Of a stretch of DNA of 64,000 bases, positions 42,691 to 63,969 are shown one piece after another. Origin of the DNA: Candidatus Cloacimonadales bacterium (lineage in GTDB: Bacteria; Cloacimonadota; Cloacimonadia; Cloacimonadales; JAFGVF01). The stretch spans positions 1,088,001-1,152,000 of the forward strand of contig OY762964.1 of assembly GCA_963667035.1 (NCBI GenBank). The letters are read 5' to 3'. Every line of letters begins with the position of its first letter. The stretch's first letter is position 1. The position numbers and the translations under genes are program-made. The notes beneath the pieces were generated by a model, which saw only the letters and a list, made by a program, of their open reading frames with translations, ran no database searches and was not told the DNA's origin.

Positions 42691-45534
42691 TTATTTCATT
42701 AGAACCATTTTTCCAGTAAGTTTTACTTTGTCAGCTTCAAGACGATAGAAATAAACTCCCGATGCTACTTTATCTCCATTACTGTTCTTCCCATCCCAAA
42801 TGACAGTATGTTCACCTGATGTCAGTAGATCTGAAACTAGAGTGTTTACTTTATGACCTTTTATGTCATAAATTATTAAAGAGGTCTCAGTATTGTTATT
42901 TGCAATTGAGAAGTTGATTGTAGTAGTCGGATTAAATGGATTCGGGTAGTTTCCTGAAAGCATTGTAACCTGATTAACTGCATTATCGTTATTAGCGAAA
43001 CTGTCTAGCATCTGAGTGTTCTCAAAGCCATTACAAAATGATTGAGCGGTATAGGGTAGGGGAGCATCACTAATGTAATTGAAAGAGATAATTTCTCCTG
43101 TGTTTGTTAGATTATTTGCAGGTAGATAAAGAAGTCTGTAGTTATCTACACCTTTGTAATATCCGCCTAAATGCTCAACACTAGAGAGCGGTTCAACAGT
43201 AAAAGTGTTAAAATCTATTAAAAGAGCATACATTTCAACCGGGAAAGTTTGAGTAACGAATATACTAGTTTCATCGATATCACAAACAACAGTCGGATTT
43301 TCATAGGTGATATCTAATCCGTTTTGTACCGGCAACCGGTCCAGTGTACCACAGAAATATCTGTATAGTAAGCCTGCATCTATATAGTTAATTAAATTGT
43401 TATTATCCATGTTAGCAGTATCGAAAGAAGTTATTGTCCAAGTCTCGGAATCACTAAGAACAAAATCGGCGAGTAAGTCTATATCAAAAGCAGAGATTAT
43501 TCTGTCTCCATTTAAATCACCAATAATAGGTAGTGTGGAAGTAATTTCGAAATTGTCTATCTTAATTCCATCATTTCTAAGACCTACATCAGTCTCTAGT
43601 CTGAATCTGAGGTAAAGATTATCATACCCTTGTATAACATAATCGTGATAATTCCAATAATCAGCACCATTGTAACTAGCAATAGTCTCCCAAATATTCC
43701 CGTTCTCAGAGATCTCTAGATAACCGTAGTCATAACCTTCTTCTAATTCAAAATACATATCGAAACTAACTTTTACCGGCATTCCGTTTGTCTGAATTGG
43801 TGATGAAAGACCGCAAGTGACATTTAAATTATTATTGTATTGTCCGGAAGGAGAATCAGATAGTACATTAGAGCCATTATCAGATTCAATTCCCCAGCTT
43901 CCGGTTGTTTGCCATTGAGCTAGACCTGTATCAAAATTATCGAAGAACAAAACGCTTTCGGATGGAAATACTAAACAGATATCTGAAGTATCCCATAGTG
44001 AAATAGATGTGTTTAAAGTTTGTGTACCAATACTGGCTGTTACTTGATAGTCTCCTTGTAGCAAAGTAGCTGAAAATCTACCATTCTCATCGGTTATAAC
44101 CGTGTTTGTTGTATAAAAGGCTATTTGACCGTTACTAATTAACTCTCCATTAGAGAATCTTGCAACACCATTCAAGGAAACTTCTTGTGCTTGAATAAGC
44201 TCGAAATTAATTGTTGTATACCCTGATGCAGGAACGACAACATCTTCAACAGTAACACTACGGAATCCTTCTTTTCTAGCAGTAATGGTATAAACTCCGG
44301 GAAGTAGTAATCTGTGGTAATCTCCAACTCCCGGATGAGATAAAATGGATTTATTGTTGTTTTCAATAATGATTTCTGCTTCAATTGGGTTTTGCGAATC
44401 ATCTGTAACGATACCTTTGATACCATTTTGAGCAAACTCAATATAAGAAAGCAATGATTCACGATTCTGATCCCAAATAGTTGATAACAGATTTGTGTTA
44501 GGCCATTTTTCATCATATACTTCACAAGTTATATCAAAACAATTTGAATAGGAGTAACTCCAGTCCTGAATTGATCCCTGAGTTTCATACCATGCATTTC
44601 CATTAGTTATACCGTTGTTAAATTCATTACTGTTATACATAGCAGGATAATTCTGAGAATATACTAGTGACATCTGTTGGAACAACTGATCATCATGTGT
44701 CAATGATGGAGTATAATCCCAAGGGTAATTCATAACGGTTGCTCCACCATGGAAAACAAGACTCTCCGTGAAATAATGACTCTCGCTCCAATCAAGAATC
44801 GCTTGTGTTTCAGGTTGCCAACTATTACCGTCTGGATGCATGATTCCTGAAGGAGTCGGGAAATTACGATTCAGGTCAACATTATTCTGATTGTATCTTG
44901 TATGATTGATATAACCATCCGGATTCATTAATGGATTAATCCATAACTCTGTATTATTTACTATATTAGTGATTCGTGTATTTGTTCCGTATTCACTTGT
45001 TAGTAGATTGATAAGTCTTATCATGAAGTCGAAACCAACCGTTTCATCACCATGAATAGATGAAATATACCTTACCTCTGGTTCTTCTTCGTCGATAGCA
45101 ACATTATCTGAAATCTTCATAAAAAGAATATCATTTCCATTAACTGAATCACCTATGTCTACAAGTCGACAAATGTTTGGGTAACTTGAAGCAGTATTTT
45201 GCATGAAATTTATATATTCTGAATAGCTGTAATACTCTCTCATAGGATCACGAGTGTCCTTTGTCTCTTCCCAAAGTCTGTTGGCATATTCTTTAGCTTT
45301 GTCAGTTATAAAATCAATGCTGTAACCGTTAGCATTAAGTAGTTGGATATCTTCTTCAAAGAGATACAAATAAATAGTATTTCCTATTACTTTATCTATG
45401 TCAATACCATTCTTATTCATAAATTTTATATCATTTCTTATGTTATTGCTAGTAATAGTTGCTGTTTCATATGTAGCCGCTAGCGTACTCATTAACAATA
45501 GCATTGCAGCCAGTATTATTATAATCTTCCTCAT
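42691..45534 (-). CDS. Secreted M14 zinc carboxypeptidase with dockerin-like repeat and C-terminal FlgD-Ig/T9SS-A-like domain
   Basis: IHGDE, NPDG, DLNRNF and FHGG motifs; GDLNGD and NMDNNNLINYID EF-hand-like repeats; NYPNPFNP...SGVYFYRL...KMVLMK tail. Confidence 0.88.
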   Translation of the reverse strand: MRKIIIILAAMLLLMSTLAATYETATITSNNIRNDIKFMNKNGIDIDKVIGNTIYLYLFEEDIQLLNANGYSIDFITDKAKEYANRLWEETKDTRDPMREYYSYSEYINFMQNTASSYPNICRLVDIGDSVNGNDILFMKISDNVAIDEEEPEVRYISSIHGDETVGFDFMIRLINLLTSEYGTNTRITNIVNNTELWINPLMNPDGYINHTRYNQNNVDLNRNFPTPSGIMHPDGNSWQPETQAILDWSESHYFTESLVFHGGATVMNYPWDYTPSLTHDDQLFQQMSLVYSQNYPAMYNSNEFNNGITNGNAWYETQGSIQDWSYSYSNCFDITCEVYDEKWPNTNLLSTIWDQNRESLLSYIEFAQNGIKGIVTDDSQNPIEAEIIIENNNKSILSHPGVGDYHRLLLPGVYTITARKEGFRSVTVEDVVVPASGYTTINFELIQAQEVSLNGVARFSNGELISNGQIAFYTTNTVITDENGRFSATLLQGDYQVTASIGTQTLNTSISLWDTSDICLVFPSESVLFFDNFDTGLAQWQTTGSWGIESDNGSNVLSDSPSGQYNNNLNVTCGLSSPIQTNGMPVKVSFDMYFELEEGYDYGYLEISENGNIWETIASYNGADYWNYHDYVIQGYDNLYLRFRLETDVGLRNDGIKIDNFEITSTLPIIGDLNGDRIISAFDIDLLADFVLSDSETWTITSFDTANMDNNNLINYIDAGLLYRYFCGTLDRLPVQNGLDITYENPTVVCDIDETSIFVTQTFPVEMYALLIDFNTFTVEPLSSVEHLGGYYKGVDNYRLLYLPANNLTNTGEIISFNYISDAPLPYTAQSFCNGFENTQMLDSFANNDNAVNQVTMLSGNYPNPFNPTTTINFSIANNNTETSLIIYDIKGHKVNTLVSDLLTSGEHTVIWDGKNSNGDKVASGVYFYRLEADKVKLTGKMVLMK

Positions 45535-45706: not shown

Positions 45707-47884
45707 CTACAATCCCAGTCTCTCATTTAACTTTTCAATAATGACTCTTGCAGCATGAGGTAAAACAGTACCGGGACCAAATATAGCCGCAGCACCGTGC
45801 TCATAAAGATAGTCATAATCTTGAGCAGGAATAACTCCACCACATATGACCATGATGTCTTCTCTACCTAATTTAGCAAGCTCATCAATCAATTGAGGAA
45901 GTAATGTTTTATGTCCTGCAGCTAATGAGCTCATACCAATAACATGCACGTCATTCTCGACAGCTTGTCTGGCAGTCTCTTCCGGAGTTTGGAAAAGAGG
46001 TCCCATATCGACATCAAATCCCATATCTGCATAAGCAGTGGCTACTACTTTTGCACCACGGTCATGTCCGTCTTGGCCCATTTTCGCAATCATGATACGA
46101 GGTCGACGTCCTTCTTTTGCTTCAAATTCATCAGCGAGTTTTCTAACACTCTCCACATCTTCTGAGTTTTTGTATTCAGATTTGTAAACATTAGAGATAA
46201 GTTTAATAGTCGCTTGATGTCTTCCAAATTTCTTTTCCATAGCGTTAGATATTTCTCCTAAAGTGGCTCTGGCTCTTGTAGCATATATTGCTAATTCCAA
46301 GAGGTTACCATCACCTGTTTCACAAGACTTAGTAATTGCATCCAAGCATTCATTAACCTTACTATTATCACGTTCAGCTTTAAGTTTATTAAGACGTTCT
46401 ATCTGAGATAATCTAACTGAAGTATTATCAACTTCCAAGATTTCAATTGGATCTTCTTGTTCTAAACGATATTTATTAACACCAACGATTGTCTCAATTC
46501 CGGAATCTATCTTTGCCTGTCTTCTCGCAGCAGCTTCTTCAATACGCATTTTTGGAAGACCGGATTCAATAGCTTTTGTCATTCCACCAAGTTCTTCAAC
46601 TTCTACAATATGATTCCAACCCTTAATGAGCAAGTCATTTGTTAAGGCTTCAATATAGTATGATCCACCCCAAGGGTCAATCACATTGCATACTCCTGTT
46701 TCATGCTGAAGGAAAAGCTGAGTATTTCTTGCTATACGAGCACTGAAATCTGTTGGTAAGGCAATAGCTTCGTCAAGTGAATTGGTATGTAACGATTGAG
46801 TATGTCCCATTGTTGCAGCTAAAGCCTCAAGAACGGTTCTTGTAATATTATTATATGGGTCTTGTTCAGTAAGAGACCAACCTGAAGTTTGAGAGTGGGT
46901 CCTAAGAGCCATAGATTTAGGATTCTTAGGATTGAATTGTTTTACTAATTTTGCCCAAAGTATGCGAGCTGCTCTTAACTTAGCCACTTCCATGAAATAG
47001 TTCATACCTTCCGCCCAGAAGAAAGATAGACGTGGGGCAAAAGCATCAATATCAATTCCGGCATCAATACCGGTTTTGATATATTGTAGACCATCAGCTA
47101 TTGTATAAGCCATTTCAAGGTCTGCAGTAGCTCCTGCTTCCTGCATGTGATATCCTGAAATACTAATACTATTAAACTTAGGCATATTCTTTGAAGTAAA
47201 CTCAAAGATGTCGGCTATAATTCTCATAGATTCTGTTGGTGGATAGATGTATGTATTACGCACCATGTACTCTTTCAAAATATCATTTTGAATAGTACCT
47301 GAAAGTTGTTCCCATTTAACACCTTGCTCTTCAGCAGCTACTATGTAGAAAGCCATTACAGGAATAACAGCTCCATTCATGGTCATGGAAACTGACATCT
47401 TGTCTAATGGGATGCCATCAAACAAAATTTTCATATCAAGTATTGAATCAATTGCTACACCGGCTTTACCAACATCTCCGACTACTCTTTCATGATCTGA
47501 ATCATAACCTCTATGTGTTGCAAGATCAAAGGCAACTGAAAGACCTTTCTGACCCATAGCAAGGTTTCTACGATAAAAAGCATTACTCTCTTCGGCAGTA
47601 GAGAAACCTGCATACTGACGAATTGTCCAAGGTCTTGTTACATACATTGAACCGTATGGTCCTCTGAGATAAGGTGGAATTCCTGACATAAATCCTAAAT
47701 GCTCCATATCAATAAGATCATCTTGCGTGTATACAGGTTTTACATCAATCTTCTCATTAGTTTTCCACACTAATTGTTCTATACTTTTACCGGATTCTTT
47801 TTGTACTTTTGTAACCCAGTCAGTGTATTTCTCTTTACTTTCTTTAAGTTTAATATCTATTTTTGTGAAATCAGGATTGCTCAT
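45707..47884 (-). CDS. scpA: Methylmalonyl-CoA mutase large (catalytic, B12-binding) subunit
   Basis: [18 protein letters not shown] and GQDGHDRG (DxHxxG) motifs. Confidence 0.96.
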
Positions 47885-52118: not shown

Positions 52119-53219
52119 CTAAACAACAACGATATTATTCTTTGGCAACAAGTCCCTAAGAATATACGTTCTATGATACTCGGCAGCAATAAAGTAATTG
52201 TATACTTCCGTATCAACAAGTACTACAGTTTCCGAATGATTCTTTAACTTCAAATCTTCTATCCATGAATATCCCATATATTTTGGAATGTTTCGTTCCG
52301 GAAAATCGAAAATACTTTTATCTCTAAAAGCTTTTTTCCAAAAGGATGCTCTTTCATCTTTTTTACCTTCTAATGATAAGACTTCTCTCAAGCTATCTTT
52401 AATATCAGCAAACTCTAAAGAGATCCTTTCATCCAGTTCATCAGGATTAAAGATTAGGTAGCTTTTATAATAGTTGTATAAACCTTCACAAGCCTCAAGA
52501 AAAGTACTGACATTATCTCTCCTATTCAGTCCGTTAGTAGCTTCACAAGGATGATCATAATTGAATGTCCATTTTAAGAAAGGTTTATCAGGATATGTAG
52601 CTACTGCTCCATGTCCCAAAGCTCCGGAGGCTTTTTCTACTGTATTAAGCCCAATAGTTCTGAAATTCTTAATCATTAAAGATGTTAACTGATTGAAAAA
52701 ACTTTTTTCTTTCTTCTTCATTCGTTTTTTGAGGTTAACATCATTTACTGAATAATCGATTGAACCTGTATCAACTTCATTTCTTCGGGAACTAACTCCT
52801 GAAAATCCGTAGTGAGCAAATGTGTCTGCATAAACGTGTGAAGTGATTCCAACAAGATATTTTTGGAAAGGCTTGTAAGGGTAGAATAGTGAGTGGTCTA
52901 GCATCTGAAGGGCTATATCACTGTCTTTTTGACACACTAGTCGCTCGGTGAATTCACTACCGATATTACCAGGCAAAAAGTGGAAAGGTACCCAAACCAT
53001 TCTTTGGTCATCACGTTTTAAATTCTCAATAGATTCTCCGTGATGAGCAGTTATGATAGGTACTATACTGCTTCCGTCTTTAAAATTGCATTTTATCGAT
53101 TTATCAACACAGTCATCAACAAATTGAGCTGAATTTGCAATTATATGTGCTGTTTTTTCTTTTATTCCCGCAGCTCTGGCAATTGTGTAGGTTCCATAAT
53201 AATGGAAATCTATCTGCAT
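52119..53219 (-). CDS. DUF6765-like protein
   Basis: MQIDFHYYGTY..ARAAG, QFVDD, WVPFHFLPG, HVYADTFAH.GFSG and LGH...YPD motifs; start at ATG 53219 after GGAGG. Confidence 0.65.
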   Translation of the reverse strand: MQIDFHYYGTYTIARAAGIKEKTAHIIANSAQFVDDCVDKSIKCNFKDGSSIVPIITAHHGESIENLKRDDQRMVWVPFHFLPGNIGSEFTERLVCQKDSDIALQMLDHSLFYPYKPFQKYLVGITSHVYADTFAHYGFSGVSSRRNEVDTGSIDYSVNDVNLKKRMKKKEKSFFNQLTSLMIKNFRTIGLNTVEKASGALGHGAVATYPDKPFLKWTFNYDHPCEATNGLNRRDNVSTFLEACEGLYNYYKSYLIFNPDELDERISLEFADIKDSLREVLSLEGKKDERASFWKKAFRDKSIFDFPERNIPKYMGYSWIEDLKLKNHSETVVLVDTEVYNYFIAAEYHRTYILRDLLPKNNIVVV

Positions 53220-53538
53220 TGTTCCTCCAATGAACGTTACAAATCCTGTAGGATAAACGATTCTACTATTACTGATATCTAACATAAGCCCATAGAATGA
53301 TAATCTAGGATTTAATAATCTAAATTTAAATTGATAAATTCAAAGTGTCGTAAATAGTCAAGAATTAAATATTGTAACGGCAAATCTGATTGATAAATCA
53401 CTTTAATTAATTGATGTTATATGCTTAATCGCATTGTAAGGTTTACACACTTTTCTTTTTACTCCCTTACTCCTGTATAAAACCATTTATCTATTTATGC
53501 ATTATCACACCACATTGTTTAAACGACTTAGTAAAACA

Positions 53539-53646
53539 CAATTTTCCCACTGTGATCCCACTGTGAAGGTACTGCTAACCCGGTGTCTCAGTGAGTGGAT
53601 AGTGCGTTCACAGTGGAATCACAGTGCGAACACAGTGCGTTGTTAG
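53539..53646 (+). repeat. Phased CACTG/CAGTG dyad element, copy D
   Basis: Gap-free alignment with copies A-C. Confidence 0.85.
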
Positions 53647-53652
53647 AGTATG

Positions 53653-54014
53653 TGTACTGTCCTGGATAGGTTACCCTAAAAAGGAACAGGAGAAATGATG
53701 AGTAAAGAGACAACGAAAAGGTACCAACGTAGTTATAGTGTTGTATTTAAAATGAAAGTAGTGGACGAAATTGAGAACGGATGTTTAAGTCAGGGAGAAG
53801 CTCAACGGCTTTATCACATATCTAGTATATCCACAATCCAAGGGTGGATTAAGAAGTATGGAATGAATGCAAACTCAGATACAAAGGATTAGGGCACATC
53901 TGTAACTTGTATGGATACACACAGGACAGGGCTTTAATATGCATAAGAAGATACTTGAGCGAGATGCTACGAGAAACCGTGAGATAGTGTATATCGTCCT
54001 GAATAAAGTTGGCA
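53653..54014 (+). pseudogene. Degenerate IS3-family element (IRL, orfA HTH, decayed orfB start, then a further IR-like end)
   Basis: IRL identical to 4092. 53695-53892 encodes an HTH_Tnp-like YS..FK.KVV.E...W..KYG segment. 53870-53989 matches 3733-3850. TATATCGTCCTGAATAAAGTTGGCA at 53990-54014 is IR-like. Confidence 0.72.
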
Positions 54015-54256
54015 TATTGAGAAATGACAGAAAAAAGTATTCTTAAATTTTGAACATCATAATGCTTTTCTTCCTATAATATAGTTATTCCGAATCTATC
54101 ACTTATAATCTATTTAAATGGGGCTCTCTCTTTGAGATGTAAACAACAAGTAAAGATTATTACTAAAATCTACATTCAATTATGTAAAGAAAGTGTTTGA
54201 CAAGTATCAAAGGAATTAGGATTCTATGTAAAATCTTCCATAAAAAGGAGTGAATT

Positions 54257-56125
54257 ATGAAGAAAGGTTTATTATTTATTACACTTTTACTTCTTGCTCT
54301 ATCCGCTTTAGCTGTGCAAATCAATGTTGTTGCTGAAGTATTCACGGAATCTTGGTGAGGATACTGTCCAAGAGCAAGAGCAGGTCTGCTTTCGTTATAT
54401 GAAAATCAACCCAATGTCGTGCCACTTATATGGCAAGGAGACAGTTCGAATGTATCACCTAATTATTCAGGACGTAGAGGTTTAATCGGTTCGCTTTCAA
54501 GTGGTATACCACAAACAGCTTTCCAAGGTGTAGAACTTGAAGTTGGAGCCTTACCAACAGCTTATCAAAGCCAATTTTTACCAATTTACAATGATTTGAT
54601 TGATGATCCAAGTCCTGTACAATTATCCGGGGTATTTGTTCCAACAAGTACAGGATATAATCTTATTGCAGATGTTCAGCTTGAATCAAATCTTGATTAT
54701 TCAAACAACAAATTAGTATATATTATTACAAGACATCAGACAGATGAATATTTCTGTAGTGTCGTTGCATACGGTGATATGGATTTACCAATAAGTACAG
54801 CAGGACAATCAGGAAGTTATAACATGGAGCTTGCTGTAAATCAAGCTTGGGATCCTGAGACATTACAAGGTTACATCTTAGTTCAATCATTTGATACAAC
54901 TTACCCTTACATTTATCAAGCTGCTGAATGTGGCACATCACCTGTAACTACCACAAGTATGAATTTTGGAGATTCATACATCGGTGGAAATTTCGAGAAG
55001 AAGTTTAAAGTTATAAATATCTCAGATAATAATGCTAACTTTGTATTATCATTGATTGGTGACGGCTATACACTCACTGACCCTACTACTCTTAGTTTAA
55101 ATGCAGGTGAGCAGTATGAATATACTGTAACATTTACACCGACAGCAGAAATGCAATATCCTGGTGTAATAATGGTATCTTCAGATATCAGTGGTTTTGA
55201 GTATTCCGAGATAGCTCTTGATGGAACCGGTTTTGTAGATCAAGCTCCTAGTGCCGAATTAGTAACATTAACCGGAATGGCAATGCAAAATGATTTCCTT
55301 ACAGCAAGCTATACTTTCCTTGATATGGATGGTGACATGGAAGGAGATACAGAAGTCAAATGGTATAAATCTCAAGATGGAGATAATTGGGAAGAATTCA
55401 ATCATAATTCTAATGACCCAATGATAATGCAAATTGGAGCAGAGTATATTGGTTACATGATTAAGTTTACAGTATTACCGATAGACGAACACTCAATGCC
55501 CGGTACACTTGTGGAATCTAATACTTCAAGCGTAATTATTCCTTTGCAAGCTCCTTGGGGACTGGACTTTACATCTGAAAATGGAAATGATATCGTCCTT
55601 ACTTGGGAGAATCCATTAACAGACCAACGTGCCTTGTTCGGGTACAGAGTATTTAGAAATGGTGTTTCTCATGCAACCTTACCTAACAGTAATACTTTAA
55701 CTTATACAGATGTTGCTGTTGAAGACGGAACATGGGAATACTATGTAAGAGCTATTTACAATAATCCTCTTACAACATCAGAGCCGTCTAATACGATTAC
55801 TGTTGTTATTGAAGACGGTCTTGTTGGTAATAATGAGAATGTTGCAACTTTAAACAATACTCTTTCCGTTTCTCCTAATCCTTTCTCAGAATCGTCTAAT
55901 CTCTCTTTTTCACTTAAGAGTGCTGATGATGTTAGAGTGGATATTTACAATGTAAGAGGTCAGCTTGTTAACACTCTTGTTAATAGTAATCTTTCACAGG
56001 GTGAACATACTATCCAATGGAATGGTACTGATGCAAGAAACAACAAAGTCTCAAATGGTATTTATTTCTATAAAATAACTGCTTCAGATTATAATAGAAG
56101 TATGAAAACTATCTACATGAAATAG
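54257..56125 (+). CDS. Putative secreted selenoprotein: Omp28/thioredoxin-like UxxC domain, Ig/FN3-like domains and FlgD-Ig/T9SS-A-like tail (622 aa with Sec34)
   Basis: AAGGAG RBS, ATG at 54257, signal peptide, VVAEVFTESW-TGA(54356-54358)-GYCP in frame with the 54419-56125 ORF, and a SECIS-like hairpin downstream. Confidence 0.8.
54359..54394 (+). promoter_or_regulatory. Candidate bacterial SECIS element
   Basis: AGAGCA-GGTC-TGCTTT stem-loop at 54377-54392. The core GCAGGTCTGC begins 21 nt after the UGA and matches the apical stem-loop I recall for the E. coli fdhF SECIS. Confidence 0.7.
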
Positions 56126-56143
56126 ATAGCAATAGATTATATG

Positions 56144-56173
56144 AAAGCCTCATCAAATAGATGAGGCTTTTTT
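56144..56173 (+). terminator. Intrinsic terminator
   Basis: AAAGCCTCATC-AAATA-GATGAGGCTTT followed by a T-run. Confidence 0.85.
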
Positions 56174-56271
56174 AGTAGGAATAAATAAAATGCTCCTACT
56201 GATATTAGGTTGACATTTATTGAAAGAGATAACTATTATCACATAAGATGAAAACTAAATGGAGATAGATT

Positions 56272-59200
56272 ATGAAGTTATTTTGTAGGCGTTATTTACC
56301 TTTAATACTGCTGATTATGATTGTTGCCTTAATGTTCACTTTAGGAGCAAAGAAAAGTGGAGATAAAATTCCCCTTTCTGATGTGATTATATCTTCCAGT
56401 TCTGATATTGTGCCTTCTGATAGTGAGATATTCGTCTATTTAAACGATAAATATTCAAACAAAATCAATAATATAAATCCGGATAAGTACTGGTCGATAA
56501 GTCCAAAGCTTAAAGGTAGATTATATAAATCTGGAAGAAATAAGATTGTTTTCCGACCCGAGAACGGATTTAAACCGGGAGAGAACTATACATTTAAACT
56601 TCAATTGGATAAGATTCTTAACGAGAATAGAATTGATGAGTTTTTTCTTGATATTAGAATTCCACTAAATGAGATAATCAGATTCAATTATTATACATCA
56701 TTTGACGGAAATACAGGGCAAACCTTACTCAAAGGGAATATATCCGTTAACGGAAGAGTTGAGAGAGAACAGTTAAATGCCGGGGTTAGCTTAAAGAGTA
56801 AATCAGGTCTGGAATACAATATTGTCTGGAATGGCTATAGCGGTCGCTATTGGGATTTTGAGATAGGTCCTTTGGATACAAAAGATATTACTAATGAGAT
56901 GCAATTGGAGTTTGATAAAGACGCCTTATCTTTAAGAGAAAGCTCATCTCAAAGAATTGAAGTGAAAGAAGCAAAAGAGTTTAATCTTACTTCTATTTAT
57001 TGGGAGAAACTAAGACTTCAAAACCTGATGGTCCTATCTTTTGACTGTGGATTAAAGAAGTTTCAAGATTTAAACGGATTAATATCACTTGAACCTAAAT
57101 GCAACTTTACAAGTACTATAAGAGACGACAGAATTTATCTAAAAGGTGACTTTGTACCGGGTGTAACTTATACTGTAAAGCTTGCATCTTCAATTAGTAA
57201 CCACTATGATGTGAAAATGAAAGATGTCGAGAACAGAAAGACTACAGCTCCCGATTTAAATGAATTGCATGAGTTTAGTGAGCAAGGTAGTTTTCTATCG
57301 TCATTAAGCGATAATAAAGTTAGCGTAAACCTTATTAATATTGATAAATTACATCTTGAAGTTAAGAAGATTCATAAAAATAATCTCTCGTATTTCTTAG
57401 ATTACAATGAGCTCTCAACAAATGGCAATTACTATGGATATGACAATATCACGTATTATGGTGAGAGTATTATATCAAAAGATATTGATTTGGATATTCC
57501 TAGAAACAGTCTTGTTAGAGTTGACTTGGATTTATCTGACTTATCAAAAGAAAACGACGGTAGCATATTCGTTATTGAAATTAAAAATCCTAACGAATGG
57601 CAAAATAAAAGAAAGATAGTTATTAAATCAGATTTGGCAGTAACAATGTTTAAAAGCGAACTTGAAACTGTAATCTCAGTGCGTGAAATTGAGTCAGGCT
57701 TTCCGATAGCAAACGCTAAAGTAGATATTTTGTCCGAACAACATCAGCTATTAAAATCCGCTTTCACTAATGAAGATGGATTAATAACAGGTCTGGAAAT
57801 CAAAGAAGACCCAAAATATATTATTGCTCGTAATTTTGAGAAAATGGGATTGCTCCTACCATACAATATGATGTGGAATACTTCTACATTTGATGTCGGA
57901 GGAACATCCATAGCCAAAGGTTTACTTATTCACTCTTATCTTGACCGTTCTATCTACAGACCGGGAGAGACAATAACCCTTGCAGCGATAGTCAGAGATA
58001 GGAATGGAGATTACCCGGATGAGCTTCCTTTAAACATAAGCGTATATAATGCTGAGAACAAGCTAATCGGTGAAGAAGTGATTAAAGATAGCAAAAAGGG
58101 ATTCTTCTTTTACCGGTATAAAACATCCGAATCCGATTTAACTGGTAGTTGGAGATTTAAAATAGTTGCTGGAGCTACAGAAGAGAATATCTACTTCGAT
58201 TTACAAACAGTGATTGCCAATAGAATAACTGTTAATGTTAATACTGATAAAGACATTTATTCAAATGATGATGATAAGATTGATATCAATGTTAAATCGG
58301 ATTATTTATTCGGGAAACCTGCTTCAGATTTGGAAGGAATGATTAAGCTAAAGATAAGCTCTTATATAAAGTCGTTTAAGACTTGGAGCGATTATACTTT
58401 TTACGATAAAGAGAGGAAGTTTACTAAGTCTGAACAAACACTTAAGATTGAAAAGACTGATGCAGAAGGATATCTTAAAGTTAACTGGAATATCCCAGAT
58501 TATCCGGCTCTGCCATCTGCTTTGAACTTAATAATAACAGGTGAAGTAACTGAAAGTAATCGTCCTGTATCTACAAACAAAATAGTTAGTTATGAAAAAT
58601 ATAATCATTATGTAGGTATTAAGAGTGATAACTATTATCTACAACAAGGTAAGAAGCAGAAATATGATATTATCTATGTTGATAGAGAAGGTAATCCTGT
58701 AAGCAAGGAAAAGCTTACGGTTAAGGTTTATTATCAGGAGTACAATTGGTGGTATAATTACAATGATTCCAATATATCTTTTAAAGAAGATTACAATACC
58801 AGTTTAGTTACCGAAAAGACCATTACTTCAAAGAGTAAGCCGGTTACTTTTAGTTTTACTCCTGAACAAAAGGGTAAGTATCTTATTGAAGTTACTTCAG
58901 CCAATGGTCACTCTGCATCATTAGAAAGACAAACCAGTTGGTGGCAGAATGAATCAGGTAGTATGAGAAGTGAAGGGCTTATTACACTAAAATCTGATAA
59001 GTCAGTCTATAAAGTTGGAGATAAAGCAAAGATAACATTCCCTGCACCGGAAAATGGACAACTATTCTATACTCTATCCAAAGACGGTAAAGTGTTAATT
59101 ACTAAATCGGAAGAATTGAAGTCTAAAGACAATGAGGGTGAGATTATTTTAGACATCTCTAGTGAACTCATGCCAAATGCCTATCTTTCAGTTTCTATAA

Positions 59201-61665
59201 TACAACCGATAACAGTAAGTAAAAATGACAGACCGATAAGAATGTTCGGTGTAATTCCAATAAAGGTTGAAGAAGAGAGTACTCGCTTAAGTTTTGATTT
59301 GAAGACACCCGAGAAAGTCAAACCGGGAAGTAAGCTTACATGTGAGATTCAAGCAGATACAAATACTAAGATACCATTTACTCTCTATGTGATAGATGAG
59401 GGTTTAGTAACACTTACTGAATATAGAATACCTAATCCTTGGAACACATTCTATGCTAAACGTAGATTACAGACAATCCCTTATGATAACTATCCTTGGT
59501 TTATTGGATTACCGCAAGGAGATGCTTTCAAGACTTTCTCTGTTGGTGGAAGTGCTATGTTTGCAATGGAAGAAGCAGGAGCCGGAAGATTAATGAAAGA
59601 TGAGGTTGGTAATGATGAACTTTTGCAAAGATTCGTTCCTCTTTCTATTTGTAAAGGTGTGCTTGAGACGGATGCAAAGGGATATGCTAAGGTTGACTTC
59701 GATATCCCAAACTATCAAGGAGCGGTAAGGGTTATAGCTGTTGCTGCTAACGGTCATAGCTATGGAATGGAATCCGGTATTGTGAAAGTACTTGATGATT
59801 TGATTGTTATGCCGACTTTACCACGAGTAATGCATCCCGGTGATATTGCCGAGATACCTGTTTCCGTGTTTGCTGTGAATAAATCTATTAAAGAAGTAGA
59901 ACTTAAACTAGATGTTGAAGATGGATATGAAGTGATTGGTGATAATAGTTTATCACTTCCTCTTGTGAACAATCAGGCTAATGTGACTTTTAAGATTAAA
60001 GCACAAAGGACAGGAAACTATAACTTAAACTTCTCTGCTACAAAAGGGAATACTTCTGTTAACGTCTCAAAAGTTCTTCCGATTATAAGCGGCTCATCTC
60101 TGCAACTTGTGGAGAAGCAATATAAGTTTAATGAAAATACTTTAGTCTCTATACCTCTCCTCAGAAAAGACACTCTTTCTTATCACAGAGTTGAATTACA
60201 ATTTAATGATATATCAACACCTAATTTTCTTACGTATGTCGATCAGTTAACTAGATTTCCATACGGTTGTACTGAGCAGATTATTTCGAAGAGCTTCCCA
60301 TTAATATATATTAGAGATATTTTCCCTGAGAACAGAAGAGATTTCTATAATGTCGAACAGCAGATAGATAATACAATCAAAGAGTTGTCTAGACGTCTTA
60401 TGTATGACGGTAGTTTATCGATTTGGTACAACGGAAGCAGTAATCTATTCTTAAGTAATTATGCTCTGCATTTTCTTTTAGAAGCTGAGAATGCCGGATA
60501 CTATGTTCCAAATACTTTGAAAAGCAATTTGATTAAGTATATTCAAAGTTCTGTTAGCTCAATAGATTTAAACAATTATCCTCATTATTCATGCTATGGA
60601 TATTATGTTTTAGCAAAAGCCGGAGAAGCTAATTTAGGCTCAATGAACTATGTTAAAGAAGAGATGATAGATAGACTTGCAACAATAGATAAATGGTTCC
60701 TGGCAGCAGCTTATAAGTTAGCAGGCATTGATAAAACAGCAAAATCAATTAGCAAGAATTTGGATTATGAATTCTTTGATGCTTCAACTGAAGAGTACTT
60801 TTCAACTACAATTAGGGACAAAGCCATTGCCTTAAATTGTCTTCATGAACTGCAAGATAATAGAGAAGATGATCTATACTCAAACCTAATTATTCATCTT
60901 GAACATAAAGAGTATCTTTCAACTAATGAATTGAGTTATTCTCTCATGAGCATAGGTCAAGTATTGAAAGACAAGCATATGAATGAAAAGAGAGAAGGTG
61001 AAATCACTATTACGGATATGACAAGTAATGAGACTTTTAACTTTAAATTCACAGATAGAATGAAGGTTATAGATATTCCTCAGTCTTGGTCATCTAAGCT
61101 CCAAGTTGAAGTTGAAGAATCACTTTCAGATAAAATTGTTATGACTGTAGTTGAGAACTATAAGAGCATACAAATTAAACAGACTAATAGTGAAAACGGT
61201 CTGGCATTACAATACAATTTCTTTATGGAAGGAGTACGAATAGACCCTGAAACAATCAAAGCAGGAGACAGATTTGATGTAGTTGTAGGAATTGAAGCCA
61301 AGCAGACAGTTGCTAATAAGAATTATGTTATTTCAATACCATTACCTGCATGTTGGGAACCGGATCAAGTCGGCTTGATTAATGGGAACTCATTTGACTA
61401 TGGTAGAGATATTACTCTTGCAGAAGATATTAATGGTAATGAAACCAATTCAAAGAAATATATCCTAACTGAACCTACCCATAAAGAGATAAGAGATGAT
61501 AGAGTGTTATTCTTCTTTGATTTGTACGGAAGTAATCCGGCATTTAAGGTTTCATTAACAGCCGTAACCAAAGGTGAGTTCGAAATGGCTTCCGTAAAGG
61601 CATTAAACATGTATTATGGTAACTACAATGCTTCAAAAGCGGGAATGAAAATAATCTGTAAATAG
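56272..61665 (+). CDS. Bacterial alpha-2-macroglobulin family protein
   Basis: LDRSIYRPGE (MG2 domain), VIDEG, thioester motif PYGCTEQ and EIRDDRV; adjacent to pbpC. Confidence 0.92.
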   Translation: MKLFCRRYLPLILLIMIVALMFTLGAKKSGDKIPLSDVIISSSSDIVPSDSEIFVYLNDKYSNKINNINPDKYWSISPKLKGRLYKSGRNKIVFRPENGFKPGENYTFKLQLDKILNENRIDEFFLDIRIPLNEIIRFNYYTSFDGNTGQTLLKGNISVNGRVEREQLNAGVSLKSKSGLEYNIVWNGYSGRYWDFEIGPLDTKDITNEMQLEFDKDALSLRESSSQRIEVKEAKEFNLTSIYWEKLRLQNLMVLSFDCGLKKFQDLNGLISLEPKCNFTSTIRDDRIYLKGDFVPGVTYTVKLASSISNHYDVKMKDVENRKTTAPDLNELHEFSEQGSFLSSLSDNKVSVNLINIDKLHLEVKKIHKNNLSYFLDYNELSTNGNYYGYDNITYYGESIISKDIDLDIPRNSLVRVDLDLSDLSKENDGSIFVIEIKNPNEWQNKRKIVIKSDLAVTMFKSELETVISVREIESGFPIANAKVDILSEQHQLLKSAFTNEDGLITGLEIKEDPKYIIARNFEKMGLLLPYNMMWNTSTFDVGGTSIAKGLLIHSYLDRSIYRPGETITLAAIVRDRNGDYPDELPLNISVYNAENKLIGEEVIKDSKKGFFFYRYKTSESDLTGSWRFKIVAGATEENIYFDLQTVIANRITVNVNTDKDIYSNDDDKIDINVKSDYLFGKPASDLEGMIKLKISSYIKSFKTWSDYTFYDKERKFTKSEQTLKIEKTDAEGYLKVNWNIPDYPALPSALNLIITGEVTESNRPVSTNKIVSYEKYNHYVGIKSDNYYLQQGKKQKYDIIYVDREGNPVSKEKLTVKVYYQEYNWWYNYNDSNISFKEDYNTSLVTEKTITSKSKPVTFSFTPEQKGKYLIEVTSANGHSASLERQTSWWQNESGSMRSEGLITLKSDKSVYKVGDKAKITFPAPENGQLFYTLSKDGKVLITKSEELKSKDNEGEIILDISSELMPNAYLSVSIIQPITVSKNDRPIRMFGVIPIKVEEESTRLSFDLKTPEKVKPGSKLTCEIQADTNTKIPFTLYVIDEGLVTLTEYRIPNPWNTFYAKRRLQTIPYDNYPWFIGLPQGDAFKTFSVGGSAMFAMEEAGAGRLMKDEVGNDELLQRFVPLSICKGVLETDAKGYAKVDFDIPNYQGAVRVIAVAANGHSYGMESGIVKVLDDLIVMPTLPRVMHPGDIAEIPVSVFAVNKSIKEVELKLDVEDGYEVIGDNSLSLPLVNNQANVTFKIKAQRTGNYNLNFSATKGNTSVNVSKVLPIISGSSLQLVEKQYKFNENTLVSIPLLRKDTLSYHRVELQFNDISTPNFLTYVDQLTRFPYGCTEQIISKSFPLIYIRDIFPENRRDFYNVEQQIDNTIKELSRRLMYDGSLSIWYNGSSNLFLSNYALHFLLEAENAGYYVPNTLKSNLIKYIQSSVSSIDLNNYPHYSCYGYYVLAKAGEANLGSMNYVKEEMIDRLATIDKWFLAAAYKLAGIDKTAKSISKNLDYEFFDASTEEYFSTTIRDKAIALNCLHELQDNREDDLYSNLIIHLEHKEYLSTNELSYSLMSIGQVLKDKHMNEKREGEITITDMTSNETFNFKFTDRMKVIDIPQSWSSKLQVEVEESLSDKIVMTVVENYKSIQIKQTNSENGLALQYNFFMEGVRIDPETIKAGDRFDVVVGIEAKQTVANKNYVISIPLPACWEPDQVGLINGNSFDYGRDITLAEDINGNETNSKKYILTEPTHKEIRDDRVLFFFDLYGSNPAFKVSLTAVTKGEFEMASVKALNMYYGNYNASKAGMKIICK

Positions 61666-63969
61666 ATGAAAATAATAGTTAAAAGATTACCACTTCTCGT
61701 TAGATTACTTCTAATATCAGGAGTGGTAATCATTTTTATGTTTCTGATAATACCGGTTCCTAAACCGGATAATATTCCTTCGAGTACTGTAGTACTAGAT
61801 AGAAATGGTAATATCCTCAGAGTCTTTCTAAATGAGGATGAACAATTTCTTTATCCAATGGATGTTGTGCAGGAAGTACCTATAAAGATTGTAGCTGCTA
61901 TTACTATGTTTGAAGATAAGCATTTCTTTGATCATCCAGGAGTGAATCCCATTGCATTGTTAAGAGCTATGAAACTTAACATAAAATACGGGAGTATAAT
62001 AAGTGGCGGTTCTACAATAACCATGCAAGCAGTTGGTTTGCATAGAAGAAGAAGTAGAACATATTTTAACAAGATTCTTGAAATACTTGAGGCTGTTAAA
62101 TGGGAAATCTTATATAGTAAAGATACAATTCTGAAATCATATTGTAACAATGCTCCTTATGGTAGTAATATTGTCGGAATCAGAACAGCCTCATATAAAT
62201 ATTATGGAAGGGATTTGCAGCAGTTGACTTGGGCTGAATCAGCTCTACTGGCAATCCTACCGAATAACCCCGGTGCACTTTATCCCGGATGTAATCCCGA
62301 GCCTTTAATGGAGAAACGTAATAATTTGCTAAGAAGACTTTGGGAAACGGGGCGGATGAATGAAGAAACATATAAAAACGCATTAAGAGAACCAATACCC
62401 AATGAAATAAAATCTTTCCCGTTTCATGCTCCTCATTTATCCGATGAGATAAATCTTAAATCGAAAGGTGAGACATGTCATACTACAATTGATTACAGTC
62501 TTCAAAATCAAGTTGAATTAATTGCTCATAGGATGAAGAATCGCTATAACAATCTTGGAATAAAGAACTTCAGTATTCTTGTTACGGAAAGAAAAAGCGG
62601 TAAGATTAGAGCTTATCTCGGATCACAAGATTTCAGGGATAGCAAGACAAACGGACAAGTGAATGGTGTTACAGCTAATCGTTCAACAGGCTCAATTCTG
62701 AAACCGTTTCTTTATGCAGCATCAATTGACGAGGGATTGATATTACCCCAAACTCTGCTAACCGACACAAAATTACATTACATGCTTTTTGCTCCCGAGA
62801 ATTATGATACCCAATATCGAGGTATTGTTACTGCAAAGAATGCTTTAAGGAAATCATTGAACATACCGGCAGTTCGTTTACTGGAACAATATGGCGTGTT
62901 CCAATTTTACAATCTTTTAAAAGATGCAGGATTACCAACTCTTTTCAGGAGCTATGACGAGTATGGATTAAGTTTAATCATAGGTGGGGCAGAGGCATCA
63001 TTAATTGATGTTACCAATCTTTATCTACAATTAGCTAACACTGAAAGTATTCCTAAAGCTCATTATGTTATTGGTAAAGATCGTGAGTTTGCTAGAGATA
63101 TATCAATATCTAAGGGAGCTAAATGGCTTACTCTGGAAATGCTCAAAAACAATAACTTTACACCACTTGAAGTGTCCGGTAAGAAACCGATTGCTGTAAA
63201 AACAGGTACTTCATTCGGAAACAGAGATGCTTGGGCTACAGGCGTGACAACAGATTGGGTAATTTCGGTTTGGGCAGGAAACTTTACCGGTGAGTCTAAT
63301 CCCGAGATTCTAAGTTTTACTGCAGCTGTTCCACTATTAAAATCTGTTTATAGAATCCTCCCTGATATTGATAATGTTAATTGGTTCTATATGCCGGAAG
63401 CTTCCATGAGAAAACAAGAGATTTGTGAAGAAACAGGTTACTATCCTGGTCCTAATTGTGAGCATACAATTGAAATTTTAATCCCTGATGAAGCAAAGCC
63501 AATGCAGTCGTGTCCATATCACAAGAAGTTAAGCGTTGATATTGAGTCTGGTTACTCAGTATGCTCTCATTGTTGGAATGGTAAGAATGTTAAGCAAGAT
63601 TATTATCTTGAGTTTCCTCCCTCTGTCACAGCTATTTTGAAAACGCGAAACTCTGGACTTAAGCTTGCTCCTTCTCATAATCCTGATTGTCCTGTTTCAA
63701 TCGGTTATACTAAACCCGAGATACTCTATCCTGTAAACAATTCAAAAGTCTTGCTTCCTAGCGATTTTGGTGATAAGAAACAGAAAGTTGTTTTAAAGGC
63801 AAGTCATTCCAATCTTGATATAAAACTATTCTGGTATTTGGATAATGAACCTATAGGAGAGACTGTATCTAAACACACACTCTCAATTACTCCAGAGCAA
63901 GGGAAGCATACCTTAAAAGTAGTTGATAACAATGGTAGCAGTAGTTCGGTTAGTTTCTCTATTCAATAA
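61666..63969 (+). CDS. pbpC: Penicillin-binding protein 1C
   Basis: EDKHF, SGGSTITMQ, GSILKPF, SLN and KTGTSFG.RDAW motifs; PBP1C C-terminal domain. Confidence 0.93.
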   Translation: MKIIVKRLPLLVRLLLISGVVIIFMFLIIPVPKPDNIPSSTVVLDRNGNILRVFLNEDEQFLYPMDVVQEVPIKIVAAITMFEDKHFFDHPGVNPIALLRAMKLNIKYGSIISGGSTITMQAVGLHRRRSRTYFNKILEILEAVKWEILYSKDTILKSYCNNAPYGSNIVGIRTASYKYYGRDLQQLTWAESALLAILPNNPGALYPGCNPEPLMEKRNNLLRRLWETGRMNEETYKNALREPIPNEIKSFPFHAPHLSDEINLKSKGETCHTTIDYSLQNQVELIAHRMKNRYNNLGIKNFSILVTERKSGKIRAYLGSQDFRDSKTNGQVNGVTANRSTGSILKPFLYAASIDEGLILPQTLLTDTKLHYMLFAPENYDTQYRGIVTAKNALRKSLNIPAVRLLEQYGVFQFYNLLKDAGLPTLFRSYDEYGLSLIIGGAEASLIDVTNLYLQLANTESIPKAHYVIGKDREFARDISISKGAKWLTLEMLKNNNFTPLEVSGKKPIAVKTGTSFGNRDAWATGVTTDWVISVWAGNFTGESNPEILSFTAAVPLLKSVYRILPDIDNVNWFYMPEASMRKQEICEETGYYPGPNCEHTIEILIPDEAKPMQSCPYHKKLSVDIESGYSVCSHCWNGKNVKQDYYLEFPPSVTAILKTRNSGLKLAPSHNPDCPVSIGYTKPEILYPVNNSKVLLPSDFGDKKQKVVLKASHSNLDIKLFWYLDNEPIGETVSKHTLSITPEQGKHTLKVVDNNGSSSSVSFSIQ

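Follow-up and report, generated by a model that had tools for sequence, protein, structure and literature searches.

We found that a gene in a window of 64,000 nucleotides from a Candidatus Cloacimonadales bacterium (contig OY762964.1) encodes a protein of 622 residues whose single in-frame TGA codon is read here as selenocysteine (Sec). The gene lies at 54257-56125 of the window on the plus strand. We conclude that it is a real, mis-annotated selenoprotein gene and that it belongs to a divergent branch, with a type IX secretion system (T9SS) tail, of the known kind of exported thioredoxin (Trx)-like UxxC selenoproteins. The probability that its product is a Sec-containing, exported, T9SS-sorted protein resembling HBP35 was estimated at roughly 0.8. 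The features that define the gene and its recoding site are as follows.

54245-54250, plus strand: ribosome-binding site AAGGAG, read from the sequence, with a 6-nt spacer to the ATG.
54257-56125, plus strand: full coding sequence of the selenoprotein, obtained by translation with TGA read as U; 622 residues, U at codon 34, stop included.
54356-54358, plus strand: TGA decoded as selenocysteine 34, which opens the U-G-Y-C redox motif; Cys in homologs and TGA in 11 of 11 orthologs.
54365-54367, plus strand: Cys37 (TGT), the resolving Cys of UxxC, invariant in alignment A1 (17 sequences).
54378-54391, plus strand: core hairpin GAGCA-GGUC-UGCUU of 5 bp, 19 nt past the TGA, a putative Sec insertion sequence (SECIS) identified by ortholog comparison and by a decamer shared with fdhF.

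The list of open reading frames (ORFs) made with translation table 11 placed the gene start at a GTG at 54419. The original prediction, which was made from the sequence alone, had instead proposed an upstream in-frame ATG behind a ribosome-binding site and a single TGA at codon 34. All of the checks suggested with that prediction that could be carried out supported it. The layout was borne out, as AAGGAG precedes the ATG at 54257 and the frame runs to 56125, with its stop codon at 56123-56125 and the TGA at 54356-54358 as its sole in-frame interruption. Re-translation yielded the same N-terminal residues as had been given before; with TGA read as U, the product begins MKKGLLFITLLLLALSALA-VQINVVAEVFTESW-U-GYCPRARAGL. 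A promoter and terminator scan of 53280-56400 revealed sites that were no more frequent than in shuffled sequences.

The six frames of 41 related genomes were searched using the first 230 residues as the query. The same family accounted for 12 genomes, among them that of the window, and in each of these the best match showed 50-100% identity and contained exactly one in-frame TGA. Among the motif hits in loci L025-L043 (n = 20), the marked column of W-[*]-x-x-C-P was TGA in 16 and Cys in 4, the latter in more distant homologs. A pattern scan with one genome per species revealed 62 loci, which were mostly from Candidatus Cloacimonadota, with some from Neomarinimicrobiota/Marinimicrobia and a few from Eisenbacteria and Krumholzibacteriia. 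The motif scan of these 62 loci gave 75 hits; five were discarded as spurious (wrong frame or strand, no family context), and the active-site column of the 70 family hits that were kept was TGA in 51 and Cys in 19. The 70-hit set and the 12-genome set are not independent, because their loci were partly taken from the same genomes. The original prediction had located the TGA exactly where the first Cys of W-C-x-x-C-P stands and had suggested looking for Cys or TGA at this column; the homolog alignment agreed with the former, and no codon outside these two states was seen among the 70 hits. Furthermore, the stretch from the TGA to the annotated GTG was conserved as protein, with C37, P38, A40, R41 and L44 invariant in alignment A1. 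A look at the sequencing data had also been suggested, and the contigs of three separately assembled runs showed 0 differences from the window over 54200-54600. Because all three runs come from a single sample and study, from which the window itself may derive, their agreement is weak evidence against an assembly error. Among the listed sequencing runs that matched the locus, there was no RNA run.

The selA, selB, selC and selD genes had likewise been named as a check, and the genome contained the corresponding machinery. The scores of selB (327.9 bits; cut-off 242), the adjoining selA (526 bits; cut-off 268), selD (379 bits) and tRNA-Sec (57.7 bits; anticodon TCA according to ARAGORN) all exceeded the curated cut-offs. 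The selD gene, which lies outside the window (G000:C1:2882124-2883047, plus strand), has its own in-frame TGA, and we also observed a strong hairpin (-25.4 kcal/mol) behind this TGA, with a loop unlike GGUC. As had been claimed, TGA is an ordinary stop codon elsewhere: two methylmalonyl-CoA mutase ORFs do overlap by ATGA at 47881-47884 (minus strand), and TGA ends 143 of the 1265 ORFs of at least 300 amino acids genome-wide. Genome-wide recoding of TGA was rejected, as read-through of these TGA-ended ORFs added a median of only 4 codons and never 100 or more. From the gene structure, the Sec/Cys column, the conserved hairpin and the Sec machinery, we infer that Sec is inserted at codon 34, and we are highly confident that the locus is a true selenoprotein gene.

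The hairpin that had been predicted downstream of the TGA forms at 54378-54391 and contains the decamer GCAGGTCTGC at 54380-54389; a weaker extension of the stem covers 54374-54395. This decamer occurs once in the 64-kb window, where 0.02 occurrences are expected by chance, and it is identical to the decamer at +19 to +28 past UGA140 of Escherichia coli fdhF. We take the fdhF stem-loop after UGA140 to be the SelB-binding part of its SECIS; in that SECIS, a bulged U is important, and SelB contacts the G and U of the loop. Conservation of the hairpin among homologs, another suggested check, was evident from the orthologs, in which the five core pairs were kept in 11 of 11 cases, with one compensatory pair. 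In particular, the pair 54380-54389 was G-C in 4 and A-U in 7 orthologs, an exchange that came about through two linked substitutions in the protein, Ala42 to Thr and Leu45 to Phe. Within the first 118 codons of the 11 orthologs, we found 30 columns that were invariant in amino acid and had four- or six-fold degenerate codons. Only three of these columns, Arg41 (AGA), Gly43 (GGT) and Leu44 (CTG), used a single codon, and all three were located inside the hairpin; the others used 2-4 codons. CTG accounts for 8% of the Leu codons in the genome. The hairpin at 54378-54391 is thus very likely the SECIS of the selenoprotein gene, which would then be a clean example of a SECIS held by coupled amino-acid changes.

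The genome also contained a second selenoprotein paralog of 977 residues outside the window (G000:C1:~726800-729690, minus strand), which begins with the same N-terminal module, ELFTAST-U-GFCPDARAGL, and ends with the same T9SS tail, with a large and different middle part. Its TGA is at C1:729586 and is followed, in the same register as in the window gene, by a GGUC-loop hairpin with a 7-bp stem, UCGAGCA-GGUC-UGCUCGA. A third, weaker homolog of the module with Cys (ATWCPNCP) was located in the middle of a different protein (G000:C1:2749761-2750204, plus strand).

In the wider family, the hairpin was found one codon further upstream, over the codons of A-R-x-G/A-L. The proportion of paired cells was 76% in 40 Sec forms versus 88% in 19 Cys forms; in both groups, 0 of 500 shuffles scored as high as the observed data in pairing or covariation, whereas slid controls gave 27-47%. 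RNAalifold predicted almost no structure for the 40 wider Sec-form sequences, and the helix was named by hand and then counted; the pairing counts therefore lean to the chosen structure, and sequence relatedness inflates them in the wider family. In comparison with their synonymous recodings, 15 of the 51 Sec forms and 5 of the 19 Cys forms folded better than 95%, which means that the protein sequence itself accounts for much of the pairing. At Ala40, the third codon position tracked the second position of residue 43, being C or U with Gly43 and G with Ala43. We also observed that several Cys homologs (L064, L066, L072-L074, L077, L081, L084 and L094) had a hairpin of 4-8 bp with a GGUCU or GGUCG loop approximately 20-35 nt past the Cys codon, with covariation. 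A quick, unrooted maximum-likelihood tree of 71 N-domains was calculated with the active-site column masked and one short row dropped. The Sec/Cys label required at least 6 changes on this tree, at least 2 of which were forced by well-supported branches, and Cys clades were nested among Sec clades within Cloacimonadota. The hairpins of the Cys forms could be relic SECIS elements. A more speculative idea, which we consider unlikely, is that the whole family keeps a standing SelB-type element maintained by selection, irrespective of whether the active-site codon is TGA or TGC/TGT, or that the hairpin serves an additional purpose in translation coupled to export. If a standing element existed, one nucleotide change would toggle a lineage between Sec and Cys, which would account for the six or more switches, and these T9SS surface proteins would offer a natural setting in which to study the effect of selenium supply on Sec/Cys turnover.

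The remainder of the protein is made up of the following parts.

54257-54313, plus strand: predicted signal peptide, residues 1-19 (KK n-region, Leu-rich core, A-L-A), assigned by eye and from alignment A1.
54314-54940, plus strand: HBP35-like module, residues 20-228, composed of a Trx fold (~24-114) and a 7-strand β-sandwich (121-227), assigned from AlphaFold2, Foldseek and NF045500.
54932-55186, plus strand: immunoglobulin (Ig)-like domain 1, residues 226-310, of the ASH / choice-of-anchor D type (PF15780, 24.4 bits; NF012200, 26.3 bits; both below cut-off).
55250-55516, plus strand: Ig-like domain 2, residues ~332-420, AIR9 A9 / ZirU-like (PF23197, 23.6 bits; NF040485, 23.7 bits; both below cut-off).
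55550-55816, plus strand: fn3-like domain, residues ~432-520 (PF00041, 17.3 bits; PF24108, 18.6 bits; weak).
55868-56122, plus strand: C-terminal T9SS sorting domain, residues 538-622 (PF13860, 49.1 bits, cut-off 27; PF18962, 35.2 bits, cut-off 27; TIGR04183, 34.9 bits, cut-off 23).

At the predicted cleavage site (residues 19-22, window 54311-54322), A19 and Q21 were invariant in the 17 aligned homologs; a Gln behind the cleavage site is common in T9SS cargo of Bacteroidota, and Q21 recalls that pattern. Pfam gave no match within the first 225 residues. Residues 1-230 were modelled with AlphaFold2 from alignment A1, and the model had a predicted local distance difference test (pLDDT) value of 90.2. 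The DSSP assignment of the model (E24-30, H37-50, E54-60, H70-76, E86-89, E93-96 and H102-114, followed by the seven-strand sandwich) revealed the classical thioredoxin topology, β-α-β-α-β-β-α, with U34 and C37 at the start of helix 1. In alignment A1, Pro85 was invariant and directly preceded strand 3, at the position that we take to be the one where thioredoxin-fold enzymes carry the cis-Pro. E27 was also invariant, alongside the W-U/C-x-x-C-P motif and Pro85.

The T9SS-like tail that had been noticed earlier was confirmed by three models, PF13860, PF18962 and TIGR04183, all of which scored over their cut-offs. The genome contained PorU (615 bits; cut-off 420) and SprA (472 bits summed; cut-off 200), and approximately 47 further genes had a match to the same tail region. 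One of these approximately 47 is in the window, a 947-amino-acid ORF at 42691-45534 (minus strand) with the same T9SS-type tail (match at G000:C1:1130730-1130954). It is likely that the selenoprotein is T9SS cargo, and its location would accordingly be the cell surface.

We propose the following mechanism. Translation would start from the ATG at 54257, and the hairpin at 54378-54391 would recruit SelB with Sec-tRNA(Sec) at UGA codon 34, where Sec would be inserted. As the product has a predicted type I signal peptide, it would cross the inner membrane via the Sec translocon, and the type A sorting domain at its C-terminus would then direct it through the T9SS (SprA, PorU and the PorV-like protein) to the cell surface. 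The N-terminal HBP35-like module would be the working part, kept away from the cell by the three Ig-like domains. Its most likely activity would be that of a selenol/thiol-disulfide oxidoreductase at the cell surface, in which Sec34 would attack as the nucleophile and Cys37 would be the resolving residue. We lean towards such a catalytic role at the surface, which we regard as fairly probable.

Several observations weigh against parts of this proposal. The hairpin is small, and its energy on its own was insignificant: the fold energy was unremarkable against dinucleotide shuffles (z = -0.76), and 14.7% of 300 synonymous recodings folded as well (z = -1.07). The case for the hairpin rests on the comparative data rather than on energy, because these z-scores were insignificant. 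Rfam revealed no family at its gathering thresholds across the whole window and none at E values up to 10 within 54300-54460. The hairpin is 6 nt farther from the UGA than in E. coli fdhF. Moreover, the Cys homologs carried an equal or better hairpin than the wider Sec group (88% versus 76%), and its presence is thus not restricted to Sec forms. The PorV-like protein scored 139 bits, which is under the cut-off of 250, and the match to NF045500, 'Omp28-related selenoprotein', at residues 21-222 (37.2 bits, E = 2.2e-9) was far below the curated cut-off of 200. Finally, we know of no electron donor for a redox enzyme beyond the outer membrane.

In the public databases, orthologs are filed as 'T9SS type A sorting domain-containing protein' entries of 566-568 residues. 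The claim that standard annotation truncates such genes was correct, as the public ortholog entries begin after the TGA. In particular, the ortholog P0003 is a 566-amino-acid entry under this name, and its start, MIWQGD, is inside strand 2 of the fold. We also observed a full-length public entry for the ortholog P0004 with Trp at the TGA position (WWGYCP); its contig was therefore read by a gene caller with a code in which TGA specifies Trp.

A nonsense mutation in a pseudogene or an assembly error is suggested by the bare presence of a stop codon and nothing further, whereas all 12 same-family genomes have the TGA at this column, as do 51 of the 70 family genes, which come from many assemblies, and the three assembled runs agreed with the window, though they represent one sample that is possibly its source. 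We consider this explanation effectively refuted, with a negligible probability. The conservation of the TGA column, the agreement of the runs and the normal use of TGA stops exclude nonsense mutation, assembly error and genome-wide recoding for practical purposes. The TGA could also simply terminate translation, which would yield a 33-residue peptide and a separate 568-residue protein from the GTG at 54419 without a signal peptide; this is the default table-11 reading, and the database entries of the orthologs start downstream of the TGA accordingly. However, codons 35-54 were strongly conserved as protein and in frame with the upstream part, and the Cys homologs read continuously across the site. 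In addition, T9SS cargo without a signal peptide would be unable to reach the periplasm, and the start assigned to P0003 would cut into the second strand of the thioredoxin fold. Termination at this codon is very improbable.

Two further alternatives accept the full-length frame. The A-R-x-G-L hairpin might be an mRNA element of the whole family that serves something other than SelB recruitment, or something in addition to it, for example a translational pause while the signal peptide emerges, and the true SECIS would then be different or more extended. Its retention with covariation in 19 Cys-form genes, in which no shuffle out of 500 equalled the 88% pairing, is consistent with such a role, as are its position at codons 41-45 right behind the predicted signal peptide and the 5 of 19 Cys and 15 of 51 Sec forms that outfold 95% of their recodings. 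However, much of the pairing derives from the amino-acid sequence alone, relic SECIS elements account equally for the Cys hairpins since Cys clades are nested among Sec clades, and the loop and stem in the window clade match the E. coli fdhF element letter for letter and are plausibly spaced from the UGA; we therefore rate this alternative as quite unlikely. The main rival for function is a binding role. The protein would contain Sec and be exported, but the UxxC module would not be a turnover enzyme and would instead capture a ligand (hemin or a soft metal) or tether a surface partner through a selenenyl-sulfide. To our knowledge, no reductant has been described at the cell surface, and the module heads several different large surface proteins (the 977-residue paralog and frames of 700-980 amino acids in relatives), which fits a binding or anchoring head. 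According to the HBP35 report, this nearest solved relative binds hemin and is required for growth under hemin limitation, which favors binding, but it also has thioredoxin activity that requires both Cys residues and reduces insulin in vitro (PMC2907840), which favors catalysis. The entire catalytic layout of thioredoxin was conserved in the family (W-U/C-x-x-C-P, the invariant E27 and Pro85), in contrast to what a pure binding role would lead one to expect. We consider the binding role unlikely, and a surface oxidoreductase remains our preferred reading.

As a consequence of the annotation, public protein sets lack the catalytic head of this gene, as well as that of dozens of its orthologs and paralogs from Cloacimonadota and Marinimicrobia. 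Homology and structure searches miss what these surface proteins do because the head is missing from the public entries. The proposed reading would place Sec outside the cell, on T9SS cargo, in a phylum that is common in anaerobic digesters. Our literature search, within the library that could be searched, revealed no paper tying selenoproteins to type IX secretion or to Cloacimonadota surface proteins and no paper pairing Omp28 with selenoprotein or Cloacimonas with selenoprotein. The family is unmentioned in the main text of the Haft 2022 preprint, deep-Sep and BSepDB, the supplements of which could list it. The finding is solid and useful for annotation, but it is incremental and will be no surprise to a specialist. 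It does not overturn current understanding, as exported Trx-like UxxC selenoproteins have been known since 2008.

With respect to the neighboring genes, the upstream neighbor at 52119-53285 (minus strand) encodes a full-length DUF6765 protein (289 bits) and is separated from the selenoprotein gene by an intergenic gap of approximately 970 bp. Directly downstream, at 56272-63969 (plus strand), a bacterial alpha-2-macroglobulin (1797 amino acids) and a PBP1C-type penicillin-binding protein (767 amino acids) are encoded in this order with no gap between them. Genes for alpha-2-macroglobulin and a PBP1C-type penicillin-binding protein are a known pairing.

To place the protein among known systems, we compared it with its nearest relatives. 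The label given in the original prediction, an Omp28/thioredoxin-like UxxC enzyme, was right with respect to the thioredoxin fold and the UxxC motif. The 'Omp28' part was weakly supported for the window protein because Pfam Omp28 (PF11551) does not match it; no match was obtained at E values up to 1, and membership was rejected. Weak PF11551 matches were present in 4 of 17 relatives (best E = 3.3e-4), and HBP35 is the better comparison. The second-best structural match was Atu2684 of the DUF1223 family (2axo; E = 9.7e-9, TMq 0.64), and weak DUF1223 sequence matches were found in 9 of 17 family members. The match to DUF1223, with 14.1 bits, was far under the Pfam cut-off of 30.7. Atu2684 lacks both Sec and a T9SS tail, and no function is known for it.

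The description of the protein as an uncommon kind of bacterial selenoprotein was also partly upheld; the Sec-containing, exported UxxC reading was supported, but 'uncommon' was overstated, since the GOS_C group, to which the window gene is distantly related, was described in 2008. In that Global Ocean Sampling study by Zhang and Gladyshev, GOS_C is a hypothetical protein with a Trx-like fold and UxxC, represented by 74 Sec and 312 Cys sequences (PMC2398784), and a table in a 2026 review links it to NF045500 (PMC13188914). GOS_C / NF045500 resembles the window family in the Trx-like fold with UxxC and in the mixture of Sec and Cys homologs. It differs in that the window protein reached only 37.2 bits versus the cut-off of 200. 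In a sample of 81 Cloacimonadota genomes, no protein exceeded the NF045500 cut-off, and the best score was 85 bits; by these scores, the Cloacimonadota proteins form a separate, divergent branch beyond the reach of NF045500.

At the RNA level, the closest comparison is the SECIS of E. coli fdhF, in which the decamer GCAGGUCUGC, a 3-bp stem capped by a GGUC loop, is the same as in the window gene; both genes read it in the same codon frame, A-G-L. In contrast, the decamer starts at +19 in fdhF and at +25 here, and the flanking stem differs.

At the protein level, the top Foldseek match was HBP35 of Porphyromonas gingivalis (5y1a), with an E value of 4.2e-11 and a TMq of 0.70 over 252 columns, and the sequence profile also retrieved 5y1a, via VVLEVFTAEWCGYCP. 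The overall identity of the two proteins was approximately 15%, and the differences are that HBP35 has Cys where the window protein has Sec, that the window protein has three additional Ig-like domains between head and tail, and that the two come from different phyla, Bacteroidota and Cloacimonadota, respectively. The overall architectures were otherwise similar, as both proteins have a thioredoxin-fold module followed by a β-sandwich and a T9SS sorting domain at the end, and the N-terminal signal of HBP35 has a predicted counterpart in the window protein; HBP35 is likewise described as carrying the conserved C-terminal domain of T9SS cargo (PMC2907840). The active-site stretches were nearly the same, with VVLEVFTAEWCGYCP in HBP35 and VVAEVFTESWUGYCP in the window protein.

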